A program made the position numbers and the translations under genes. The notes under the pieces were generated by a model. The model was given only the letters and a program-made list of their open reading frames with translations, ran no database searches and was not told the origin of the DNA. DNA of 64,000 nucleotides from NCBI GenBank assembly GCA_963752475.1, contig CAVVYR010000001.1:160001-224000 (forward strand), read 5' to 3'. This document shows positions 52,052-53,733 of the stretch, piece by piece. The number at the start of each line of letters is the position of its first letter. The stretch's first letter is position 1. The DNA is from an uncultured Chloroflexia bacterium (GTDB lineage Bacteria; Chloroflexota; Limnocylindria; Limnocylindrales; CSP1-4).

Positions 52052-52089
52052 CGCTTCGAGGGGCGGTCGAGCTCCGCCTTGCTCCTATG

Positions 52090-53148
52090 TCAAGCGGCGA
52101 GCGTGACGGGCCATGTCGCAGCGACCCCAGTGGCACGTTCGTCTGCCTGGAGATGGCGGAAGACCACGTCGGAGAGCCGCCGCCGCAAGAGGCGCAGGGC
52201 CTCGGTCTTGGTGGCACCGGCGGCAATGCGGCCCTCGACGTAGGCGCGTCCGTCGTCGCCCACGCCCCGCAACTGGGTGACCGCGATCCGGTGCAGCGCC
52301 GCGTTGACCTGACGGTTCCCGCCGCGGCTCAGTCGGTACCTGGGGCTGTCGCCGGACCACACGGGGATCGGCGCGGTCCCGTTCCAGCGGGCGAAGGCGG
52401 CCTTGGAGCGGAAGCGGCCCACGCCGGCGGCCTCGCCGACGATCTTGGCCGCCGAGAGCGCGCCGCAGCCGGGCAGCGCGAGCAGCGAGGGCGCCAGGCG
52501 ACGCACGATGCCGGTGATCCGGGCCTCGAGCTCGTTGGCCCGACGGGTGGACTCCCGGCAGCGGACCACGAGTTCACGAGCGATGTCGGCCACGGGGCCC
52601 GCGACGCCAGCGAGGCGCTCGTCGAGCTCATCGAGGACATGCTGCCGACGCAGGGCCTTGGGCGGGATCTCGAGTCCCGGGAAGAGTTCGTGGAGGTGCC
52701 AGCGTAGCCGGCTCTGCATCCTCGTCCGCTCGGCCACGAGGTCCTCGCGGTGATCGACGAGGAGGCGCAGCGCACGGGCCTCGCCGTCGAGACGAGCGAC
52801 CGGGAGCTCCGGCTCGCGGAGGGCGGCACGAGCGACCGCCAGGGCGTCGATCGGATCGGACTTGCCTCGCTCGCGGCCATTCCGGCGGGCCTCGGCCATG
52901 AGGCGGGGCGGCACCCGGACCGCGGCCTCGCCAGCCCGCAGGAGATCGACCTCCAACCGGCGCGTCAGGTGCCGGCAGTCCTCGACCGCGAAGAGGCGCT
53001 CATGCCACTGCGCCGCCCACTCGACGGCCTGGAGATGGCCGTCAGGCGTCGCCGCGACGGTCCTCTCGGCGAGCCTGCGCCCCGCCCTATCGATGGCTAC
53101 GAGCGTGTGGGTGCGCTTGTGCGCGTCGACTCCGATGGTCACTCTCAT
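52090..53148 (-). CDS. IS110 DEDD recombinase/transposase
   Basis: IGVDAHK, AVED, KSDPIDA (DEDD); GTAPIPVWSG (Tnp Ser); GGNRQVNAALH. Confidence 0.95.
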   Translation of the reverse strand: MRVTIGVDAHKRTHTLVAIDRAGRRLAERTVAATPDGHLQAVEWAAQWHERLFAVEDCRHLTRRLEVDLLRAGEAAVRVPPRLMAEARRNGRERGKSDPIDALAVARAALREPELPVARLDGEARALRLLVDHREDLVAERTRMQSRLRWHLHELFPGLEIPPKALRRQHVLDELDERLAGVAGPVADIARELVVRCRESTRRANELEARITGIVRRLAPSLLALPGCGALSAAKIVGEAAGVGRFRSKAAFARWNGTAPIPVWSGDSPRYRLSRGGNRQVNAALHRIAVTQLRGVGDDGRAYVEGRIAAGATKTEALRLLRRRLSDVVFRHLQADERATGVAATWPVTLAA

Positions 53149-53179
53149 CCCGGACCTCCCTCTATGTTCTCTCGACGAA

Positions 53180-53342
53180 GCGTCGCGGGCCGGACGGGGA
53201 CACGCCTTTCTCGAGGTCTCGACCAGGCTCCTATCAAGTCACTCCGAGCGGCCCGACTGCGCCCGGCAGGTGGCACAACGCGGAGAAGTTACGGGCCGAT
53301 GCGGCCGGGGACAGCGAAGAAACGAGCCAACCTGCCGGGCAG
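53180..53342 (-). ncRNA. Predicted IS110 bridge RNA (target-binding and donor-binding loops)
   Basis: Two stem-loops whose internal loops match the target flanks (TTTCTTCGC, CTCCGC) and the element ends (ATAGGAGC, AGAAA). Confidence 0.8.
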
Positions 53343-53733
53343 CGCCGACGATGACAGAAACGCGAAGAAAGCCGATGCGCTCTTGAGGATCTCGTTGGCC
53401 CGCCGCAGCTCGCGGTTCTCCCGTTCGAGCTCCTTGAGGCGCTCGGCCTCTTCGCTGGTGGTGCCGGGGCGATGGCCCCGGTCGATCTCGGCCTGGACGA
53501 CCCAGCGGCGCAGGGACTCGGGGCCGATGCCCAGCTCGTTCGCGATGCGGGTGATCGTGCCGAAGCGCTCCTCGCCCCGGTCGTACGAGTCGAGGACCAT
53601 GCGGATGGCCCGGTGCTTCAGCTCGGGTGGGTACTGACGCGGGCTGGACCGCCCGGTGCTGCTGCTGTCGTTGTCAGCCATGACTCCATGTTCCTCCAAC
53701 TGCTGGAGTCTCCATCGAAGTCAGGGCGGTTCA

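Follow-up and report, generated by a model that had tools for sequence, protein, structure and literature searches.

An IS110-family insertion sequence in a Limnocylindrales genome with a leader RNA that probably directs it into the orfA gene of IS3 elements

INTRODUCTION

What brings one insertion sequence (IS) to rest inside another, at a single defined position of a coding sequence? The question is raised by a 64,000-nucleotide (nt) stretch of DNA from an uncultured Chloroflexia bacterium of the order Limnocylindrales (contig CAVVYR010000001.1, positions 160,001 to 224,000; hereafter the window), in which an IS110-family IS separates the two halves of an IS3-family element. Bridge or seek RNAs of IS110 elements have been established (PMC11208160, PMC11208158, PMC11187229), and a first-pass annotation of the window proposed that the non-coding end of this IS110 element folds into a target loop and a donor loop, and that its target is the conserved SAFFA-AELD coding stretch of IS3 orfA. 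Our analysis of the locus and its relatives leads us to suggest, with a probability of roughly 0.9, that the element is an IS110-group IS with a leader-encoded bridge (seek) RNA which targets IS3 orfA and the element's own joined ends, and that its recombinase inserts it there. This reading is carried by the anatomy of the element, a conserved fold, the covariation of guides with flanks, an empty site and repeated independent insertions at one IS3 site.

RESULTS AND DISCUSSION

The element and its insertion site

The IS110 element is 1283 base pairs (bp) long and occupies positions 52078-53360 of the window (52079-53361 is equally possible owing to an ambiguity of one G). It lies on the minus strand, as do all features described below unless another strand is given. 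Its recombinase gene (52090-53148) is intact, encodes 352 amino acids (aa) and is recognized by Pfam and NCBIfam models of the IS110 family: DEDD_Tnp_IS110 (PF01548) at residues 5-157 (E 2.5e-26), Transposase_20 (PF02371) at residues 222-294 (E 1.6e-16), and the NCBIfam equivalog NF033542, 'IS110 family RNA-guided transposase', with 166.6 bits against a cut-off of 140. Residues D8, E56, D98, D101 and S265 are invariant in 15 homologues and are putative catalytic positions. The catalytic residues of IS621 are D11, E60, D102, D105 and S241 (PMC11208158); in a profile alignment to the IS621 chain 8wt6, with a numbering offset of +2 for that chain, D8, D98, D101 and S265 stand opposite D11, D102, D105 and S241, and E56 corresponds to E60 by position only. 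The profile of the 15 homologues matches the solved transposases of ISCro4 (E 4.8e-10) and IS621 (E 6.4e-9); a single-sequence phmmer search against the PDB gave no match at E up to 0.001. The element has no terminal inverted repeats. Instead, short subterminal repeats (5 bp), TGTCA on the left (53352-53356; this or a near variant occurs in most relatives' left ends) and TGACA on the right (52088-52092), flank 14 nt of the joined ends. The right repeat overlaps both the recombinase stop TGA (52092-52090) and a TTGACA hexamer (52093-52088). The stop codon falls at the same place within TTGACA/TGACA in all relatives, and the intact homologues all end in ...AA*.

The host IS3 element spans about 53733 to about 51122, and the IS110 element sits between its halves. 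The left part (53361-53733) matches HTH_Tnp_1 and NF033516; the right part (51122-52077) opens with the last codons of orfA (AELDRPSKR*), which are followed by the ALIL frameshift pseudoknot and the decayed remains of orfB. The open reading frame (ORF) of orfA, with a listed start at 53699, is interrupted after ...ANEILKSASAFFA (SASAFFA) at 53362/53361 and resumes at 52077; as it stands it continues across the junction and meets a stop codon within the IS110 end, at 53289, which yields a fusion with 24 codons of that end. The decayed orfB occupies at least three reading frames and matches HTH_21, rve, rve_3 and NF033516. All three pieces of the IS3 element match NF033516, and only the last passes its cut-off (162.3 versus 160 bits). 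ALIL (Rfam RF01497) was found at 52083-51977 with 77.9 bits (E 2e-19, cut-off 50) and is the only real Rfam match in 51000-54500. The host thus has the features that characterize the IS3 family, namely a helix-turn-helix domain in orfA, an rve core in a -1-frame orfB and a frameshift signal between them. The two half-sites at the insertion are TTTCTTCGC on the left (53362-53370, codons A-F-F-A) and GCGGAG on the right (52072-52077, codons A-E, at the start of ALIL stem 1).

An uninterrupted copy of the same IS3 element (L035) is present in another genome of the same genus, with 90% identity overall and 98.8% over the last 83 nt. The left part in the window is 90% identical to it over 372 nt and the right part 88% over 958 nt, with 5 gaps. 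Its empty site reads GGCTTTCTTCGC-G-GCGGAGCTCGAC (in a longer reading, ...GGCTTTCTTCGC G GCGGAGCTCGACCGCCCCTCGAAGCGATGACCCGCTAC...), that is, the left flank of the window is joined straight to the right flank. It follows that the insertion comprises 53360-52078, that the target was not duplicated and that one G can be assigned to either side. The ALIL model matches the empty site of L035 in full (87.8 bits), its first approximately 22 positions overlying the target; model positions 4-13 are missing in the window copy. The limits of the element are also supported by the nearest copy, L064, whose similarity to the window (93%) ends exactly at 52078 and at the IS3 end at 53733, and by metagenome contigs (runs X1 and X2) whose loose ends, at 52078 and at 53361, carry the sequence of the opposite flank. 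No piece of these contigs spans the stretch, and the joints are short-sided and probably derive from other organisms; only the loose ends were used.

The leader RNA and its guides

Relatives were collected in three ways. At the DNA level, a search through 400 genomes from the same family gave 29 further loci, six of which (L011, L015, L017, L025, L029 and L032) are without a left end in the available sequence; a protein-pattern scan of a species collection gave 20 loci, four of them on the same contigs as L006-L009; and a tblastn search of plasmids matched 1692 records, of which six were inspected. Genomes G082, G194 and G361 are counted in the search tallies only, and no locus or claim is based on them.

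The 212 nt at the left end of the element (53149-53360), upstream of the recombinase ATG at 53148, form a non-coding leader with a bridge-RNA-like structure in the consensus fold. The 11-bp perfect stem proposed for its target loop, GCCCGGCAGGT (53340-53330) with ACCTGCCGGGC (53271-53261), and the four proposed guide motifs all lie on the minus strand where they had been predicted. The fold was derived from alignment A1, which holds 29 of the 38 tabulated leaders; near-duplicates or leaders with long insertions (L013, L020, L064, L067, L070, L074, L077, L078 and L080) were omitted. Its consensus has four helices with 37 pairs, arranged as two domains of stem, internal loop and hairpin. In the target-binding domain (53261-53340) the outer helix pairs 53340-53326 with 53274-53261, the inner hairpin pairs 53312-53306 with 53295-53288, and the strands of the internal loop are 53325-53313 and 53287-53275. 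In the donor-binding domain (53187-53254) the corresponding elements are 53254-53238 with 53201-53187, 53224-53222 with 53217-53215, and loop strands 53237-53225 and 53214-53202. Across the 29 leaders 97.1% of the cells are paired, compared with 88.5% in shuffles (0 of 500 as high) and 35-45% with slid partners, and 21 of the 37 pairs show compensatory changes on both sides. Helices 1 and 2, in the target domain, have 99.0% and 96.5% of cells paired, with both-side changes at 8/14 and 5/7 pairs; the values for helices 3 and 4, in the donor domain, are 95.2% and 97.7%, and both-side changes occur at 7/13 pairs of helix 3. The minimum free energy (MFE) structure of the window leader includes both loops. 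The Rfam 15 covariance models gave no match within 53149-53360 at E up to 10.

The guides stand on both sides of each loop, in the order known from IS621, so that the two-loop layout of target and donor put forward in the first-pass annotation is borne out. In the target loop, the left guide TTTCTTCGC (53314-53322) has the same sense as the left flank (53370-53362) and is identical to it, and the right guide CTCCGC (53280-53285) is antisense to the right flank GCGGAG (52077-52072). A 3' extension of this right guide, GTTG (53276-53279), is antisense to the element end CAAG (52081-52078) with three of four positions matching, and we call it handshake-like, as it may be a longer analogue of the handshake guide of IS621. 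In the donor loop, the left guide ATAGGAGC (53227-53234) has the same sense as the right end of the element (52088-52081), and the right guide AGAAA (53207-53211) is antisense to the left end TTTCT (53360-53356). The matches of the four guides are complete in the window (left target 9/9, right target 6/6, left donor 8/8, right donor 5/5). In 200,000 first-order Markov simulations of a 197-nt leader, a match to the 9-mer was found in 0.15% of leaders, to the 8-mer in 0.11%, to the 6-mer in 19% and to the 5-mer in 6%; all four occurred jointly in none of them.

Covariation of guides with target and donor was examined in a table of 38 elements by comparing the match of each guide to its own partner with its match to the partners of other elements, in 10,000 permutations; since the elements are related, the resulting figures overstate their independence. 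For each covarying guide, no permutation was as good as the true assignment. The left target guide matches its own left flank at 7.70 of 9 positions and other flanks at 5.07 (n = 37), and the right target guide matches its own right flank at 4.11 of 6 positions and others at 2.36 (n = 35). The guide extension matches the element-borne terminal trinucleotide (AAC, ATC, TTC, AAG or GAC) at 2.77 of 3 positions, compared with 2.01 for others (n = 35). The right donor guide matches its own left end at 5.32 of 6 positions and others at 3.70 (n = 37), and six compensating variants of left end and guide were found (TTTCT/AGAAA, TTTAT/ATAAA, TTCAT/ATGAA, TCAGT/ACTGA, TGAGT/ACTCA and TCAAT/ATTGA). The left donor guide is invariant in all 29 aligned leaders, and so is the right end. 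Exceptions are L064, whose right donor guide has lost 5 nt, and L077, whose left end is unmatched by its guide.

Repeated insertion at one site of IS3 orfA

The left junction of the window recurs in 19 further copies: 14 loci of the pattern scan (L064-L073, L078, L080, L081 and L082), L041, and four of the six inspected plasmid loci. In the 14 pattern-scan loci the junction reads ...FF(A/G)| in IS3 orfA (FFA in 13, FFG in L080), followed by TT(T/C)(C/A)TG...; L076 and L083 have only a right junction of the IS3 type, and the other four of the 20 (L074, L075, L077 and L079) lie in other targets. The plasmid loci are from Streptomyces (L113 and L114) and Rhodococcus (L109 and L111), with 58-62% aa identity, and in both Streptomyces records the adjoining gene is annotated 'IS3 family transposase'. 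HTH_Tnp_1 was above its cut-off in all nine left flanks tested. The carriers also include metagenome-assembled genomes of Chloroflexota (Chloroflexia, Limnocylindrales and Dehalococcoidia) and Actinomycetota (Acidimicrobiales). The target is the last codons of IS3 orfA (FFA|AELD), at the 5' edge of the ALIL frameshift pseudoknot; the assignment to SAFFA-AELD made from the window is thus upheld by the empty site of L035, by the 19 copies with the same junction and by the pair of elements described next.

Such a distribution might also arise if a single ancient IS3::IS110 composite had spread as a unit, by IS3 transposition or horizontal transfer, and the link with IS3 were one of descent. The low copy numbers, one or two per genome, would fit, and the window and the copy in genome G335 (L064) both consist of an IS3 left part plus IS110 with 93% identity in otherwise unrelated surroundings, so that these two could be one composite. 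However, the right flanks of the host IS3 elements are of three types, GCGGAGCTCGACCGCC, CGGGAGCTCGACCCGCG and NNGGAGACCCG(G/A)TGA. In one genome, L069 and L070 are identical over 1276 bp and sit in two IS3 elements of different types, the left 400 nt of which have no detectable similarity. Moreover, the insertion splits orfA from orfB, and a composite should therefore lack an OrfAB of its own. The guides also follow small differences of the flanks within the IS3-targeting group: in L080 the guide ...CGG tracks the flank ...CGG, and in L078 the guide TTTTTTCGC tracks the flank TTTTTTCGC. We consider spread as a composite very improbable; the pattern is one of repeated site-specific insertion and not of descent from one composite.

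Several of these copies show rearrangement or decay. L064 (L064:1293-2580, equal to L006) is the nearest copy to the window, with about 93-94% nt identity and the same IS3 left flank; past its terminal AAG, unrelated sequence stands in place of the IS3 right half, which suggests a deletion or rearrangement at this end. In two IS3-site copies the recombinase is cut at 122 codons (L078:1495-1860) and 127 codons (L080:1495-1875), and some host orfA sequences contain stops (L068, 971-1270, and L078). A close relative of the Rhodococcus element L111, L110, is located on plasmid pRWAY02 of Rhodococcus sp. WAY2 (420613-424656) between two opposite-strand coding sequences annotated 'transposase', in a record with seven recombinase-matching places.

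Relatives with other targets

A sister clade of 19 relatives (L010, L012-L014, L016, L018-L024, L026-L028, L030, L031, L033 and L034; for example L026:2592-2765:-) has 63-67% aa identity and the left end TGAGTGTCA. These elements lie 1-3 nt past a 9-mer, which starts with a -10-like TANNNT in 16 of the 19, and an ATG or GTG follows the element at a distance of exactly 2 nt in 15 of the 18 loci that have a right flank. Their left guides copy the -10-like box and their right guides cover the start codon, and the conserved right end places AGGAG about 9 nt ahead of that codon. The arrangement suggests that these elements enter leaderless genes in the space from promoter to gene start; host transcription would then enter the bridge RNA and the element would supply a ribosome-binding site.

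Two further sites were found among the pattern-scan loci. L075 (1-200) and L079 (1240-1300) have the left end TCAGTGTGA and the left guide CTTCTTCAC, and the insertion follows GAC TTC TTC ACC (DFFT), with the VET codons coming after the element in L075. The upstream part of the gene hit resembles HTH_32 and HTH_Tnp_Tc3_2, both below cut-off, and the DFFT|VET site is a second transposase-like target in the same clade. L074 and L077 (1220-1470 in both), from one genome, lie within a repeat ending ...AACAGGGCAC(C/A)(T/C)TTTGCA. The left guide of L074 fits its repeat target (ACTTTTTGC). That of L077 keeps the IS3-type 9-mer TTTCTTCGC, and together with its unmatched left end this suggests a locus perhaps caught in the course of natural retargeting, or else in decay.

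These relatives bear on another explanation, in which the site is chosen by the protein alone or by DNA or RNA structure such as the ALIL stem, and the matches in the leader are captured or fortuitous. GGAG within the right half-site is common to all three IS3 types and the right-guide pairing is weak in some copies, as this explanation would have it; in addition, GGCG(T) beside the right donor guide is conserved in the donor loop whatever the target, and is probably a protein or structural contact. (We had considered GGCG as a second handshake, which fits the window left junction at 8/9 positions, and rejected it because it is conserved in clades with other targets.) Against it, relatives with other targets (the -10-like box plus start codon, DFFT|VET and the repeat) carry correspondingly different 9-mers in the same loop column. 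The guide matches, moreover, sit in unpaired strands of a fold kept by compensatory changes, and RNA guidance has been demonstrated experimentally for family members described in PMC11208160 and PMC11187229. We give hardly any credence to site choice without the RNA, and retain the reading in which the leader guides the recombinase.

A quick maximum-likelihood tree of 37 of the 44 recombinases, with a midpoint root only, splits at one branch (support 99, starred in the tree) into two sides; L030, L033, L078, L079, L080, L081 and L082, which have no ORF of at least 300 aa, were omitted. One side holds a clade of 17 elements located between a -10-like box and a start codon, together with L112. 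The other is a clade of 19, of which 15 members sit at the IS3 site and two in the repeat; the remaining two are L110 and L075. With the midpoint root, the tree suggests that IS3 targeting is ancestral in the 19-element clade.

Register of the crossover

The target is 16 nt long. Its first nine positions correspond to the left target guide and its last six (11-16) to the right guide, with position 10 left unpaired between them. On the donor, the left guide covers ATAGGAGC, then come three bases (AAG here; AAC, ATC, TTC or GAC elsewhere), and the right guide covers the first 5 nt of the left end. The spacer of the target lies on the left and that of the donor on the right in every junction pair read. 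The three donor bases belong to the element, being the same in L069 and L070 (both end in AAG); the base that precedes the left end, which is G in the former and C in the latter, comes from the target. Accordingly, L070 has zero bases common to donor and target at the crossover. The same zero sharing holds for L065, L067, L073 and L082, which end in C, since position 10 is G in 27/27 uninterrupted IS3 copies. The suspicion voiced in the first-pass annotation that the register differs from the 2-nt core of IS621 was therefore justified.

Three registers with a core were tried and rejected. A 2-nt GC core directly after TTTCTTC and ATAGGA, which predicts the target TTTCTTC-GC-AAGGCGGAG, is contradicted by the empty site, where AAG is missing. 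Duplication of GC at both junctions, with the target TTTCTTCGCGGAG (FFAELD), conflicts with an empty site that is 3 nt longer, and fails in most relatives of the -10 clade. In the IS621 register (7+2+5, with the cut after position 9) the base before the left end would be element-borne, but L069 and L070 differ there; this register would also need C at position 10 for L065, L067, L073 and L082, where the 27 IS3 copies have G. The junctions fit a transfer of the top strand that is resolved by replication, as 10.1101/2025.10.25.684509, in the part drawn on here, proposes for another IS110 element, and we infer that a similar route may apply here.

Proposed mechanism and state in this genome

We propose that the target loop reads two half-sites of IS3 orfA one unpaired base apart, TTTCTTCGC on the strand complementary to the coding strand and GCGGAG on the coding strand, and that the donor loop reads the joined ends of the element itself. 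The recombinase, of the DEDD/Ser type, would then insert the element directly behind the Ala codon of the FFA motif, which is conserved, and in every case so that it points the way IS3 is transcribed; the crossover would cause no duplication and require no base common to donor and target. The insertion would part orfA from orfB at the 5' edge of the frameshift pseudoknot. As the frameshift stimulator and orfB are displaced by 1.28 kb, OrfAB should not be made, and production of the IS3 transposase should stop. Every insertion runs in the same direction as its IS3 host, so that transcription from the IS3 promoter can reach the leader, and while the element is integrated it probably does. Among the sequencing runs listed, no RNA run contains the stretch, which counts neither for nor against transcription. 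The leader RNA would be bound by the recombinase, its pairing would direct recombination and the IS3 element would be silenced.

Several observations weigh against this proposal. The MFE stability of the single window leader is not above that of shuffled sequences (z = +0.43), so the structure is not established by the window alone, and the support for the fold comes from comparative analysis. The 6-nt right target guide on its own is a match of the kind that chance gives in 19% of leaders; the two short guide matches carry little weight alone and gain it only through covariation in relatives. Right-guide pairing is weak in L069/L070 (3/6), L072 (3/6) and L066 (2/6). In L065 and L067 the left guide and flank mismatch by 1 nt each, each guide fitting the flank of the other, and the handshake-like 4-mer of the window has one mismatch (CAAC versus CAAG). 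A shared core dinucleotide is not seen (at most one ambiguous G, and none in L070), in departure from IS621, the best-studied model. A promoter and terminator scan of 51900-53800 found 0 sites in the integrated state, and the joined ends, read by eye, contain TTGACA in the right end with no TANNNT -10 box 16-18 nt on. Lastly, the single full copy and the decayed host orfB indicate that the insertion may be old and the element inactive here.

This last point leads to the question whether the element is a dead relic, with the structure of a bridge-RNA IS110 and no function in this genome. In this genome (G000; 88.8% complete, 38 contigs) the element occurs as a single full copy, besides which there are 95 nt left over from another IS110-family gene. 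Of its two ALIL sites one is occupied, and the other is degenerate, with a 9-mer unlike the guide. The host IS3 is decayed, and in the nearest copy, L064, both the IS3 right flank and 5 nt of the right donor guide are gone. On the other hand, the recombinase ORF of the window copy is intact with all catalytic-type positions, and so are all four guides. We regard loss of function as unlikely, though with an appreciable chance of being true; it concerns activity only and is compatible with the identity proposed here, an IS110 element guided to IS3 orfA by its leader RNA.

Relation to known systems

In the parts drawn on here, the papers on IS621 (Durrant et al. 2024, PMC11208160; Hiraizumi et al. 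2024, PMC11208158) describe much that recurs in the window element: a DEDD RuvC-like domain and a Ser-bearing Tnp domain, a leader RNA that carries the target-binding loop on its 5' side and the donor-binding loop on its 3' side, with left guides in the same sense as their partners and right guides antisense to theirs, a guide extension beside the right target guide that matches the left arm of the donor (the handshake), and short subterminal inverted repeats around a 14-nt donor segment (PMC11208160). In IS621 donor and target share a CT core, to which all four guides pair (PMC11208160), whereas in the window element the target guides stand one base apart and the donor guides three bases apart. 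After exchange, the 2-nt handshake guide of IS621 beside the right target guide pairs with donor positions 6-7 (PMC11208158); the handshake-like stretch here has 3-4 nt, and the subterminal repeats have 5 bp compared with 2-3. The target of IS621 is a repetitive extragenic palindromic (REP) element and that of the window element an IS. The two recombinases are related by a distant profile match (E 6.4e-9), and the window clade shows no duplication and, in L070, zero shared bases.

The closest parallel is ISEc21 (Siddiquee et al. 2024, PMC11187229), an IS110-family element that targets a conserved coding region of IS3, the DDE site in orfB. As that paper describes it in the part drawn on here, ISEc21 is likewise IS110-type, with a non-coding region upstream of the gene that gives rise to an RNA matching both target strands. 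Its natural target is a conserved coding stretch of the IS3 family, entered at a fixed position and orientation with no target duplication, and natural retargeting is found in a relative, ISMch6. Unlike ISEc21, and compared by description, the window clade occurs in Chloroflexota and Actinomycetota and targets the FFA codons where orfA ends, at the frameshift pseudoknot. That an IS110 element can be aimed at IS3 has therefore been published before, and the window clade is a clear further example and not a new principle. Similarly, the lack of a shared core separates the element from the IS621 model but not from the IS110 family, as ISEc21, too, is reported to insert without duplication. Other IS110-family elements that insert into mobile elements are cited in PMC11208160, namely IS1383 (in the inverted repeats of IS1384) and IS4321/IS5075 (in the inverted repeats of the Tn21 family); they differ in having terminal inverted repeats as the target, and not a coding or frameshift region. 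Searches of the main text of published papers turned up no IS110 element aimed at the IS3 orfA or frameshift site, and no mention of this clade. IS4321 and IS5075 belong to the IS1111 group, with the RNA downstream of the gene.

A wider picture can be drawn, which we offer tentatively and think rather less probable than its failing in some part. In it, an IS110 lineage of Chloroflexota and Actinomycetota, including the Streptomyces and Rhodococcus plasmids, would have had the IS3 frameshift window as a long-standing target and would be a hyperparasite that stops the IS3 transposase, inserting without a core by the top strand only, with sisters retargeted to other sites. The target is protein-constrained and stands beside a frameshift RNA structure, and this probably accounts for a degree of conservation that suits it as a landing pad. 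Such a landing pad would be multi-copy, horizontally travelling, plasmid-borne and durable, and its disruption would cost the host nothing. If the picture is true, nature would already have produced a bridge recombinase that lacks the core constraint seen in IS621, and sister lineages would have acquired new targets, in other transposase genes or in the interval from the -10 box to the start codon of genes that seem to be leaderless. In any case, a conserved 16-nt target that has received about 20 insertions, in IS3 hosts of three types, makes up, with the differently targeted sister clades, a clean natural data set for bridge-RNA targeting. Guide rules of a clade other than IS621 can be read from it: the left guide has 9 nt, a single target base stays unpaired, the right guide has about 5-6 nt, and a handshake-like stretch of 3-4 nt matches the element's own end. 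Should bench work confirm that no core is shared, this would have consequences for the debate between Holliday-junction and top-strand-only exchange (10.1101/2025.10.25.684509, in the part drawn on here) and for the engineering of bridge recombinases without a fixed core.

Neighborhood of the element

The region around the IS3/IS110 nest is an accumulation of mobile-element debris. About 2 kb away, a 95-nt fragment (55350-55444, plus strand) with 73% identity to the recombinase gene lies within an ORF (55183-55542) that has a weak match to Transposase_20 (E 0.0094, below cut-off), a relic of a second IS110-family element. C-terminal Phage_integrase fragments at 50830-51261 and 54782-54949 (both minus strand, the second below cut-off) flank the nest. 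The start of an SGL gene (SMP-30/gluconolactonase type; 53618-53929, minus strand) is broken off where the IS3 element begins, at about 53733.

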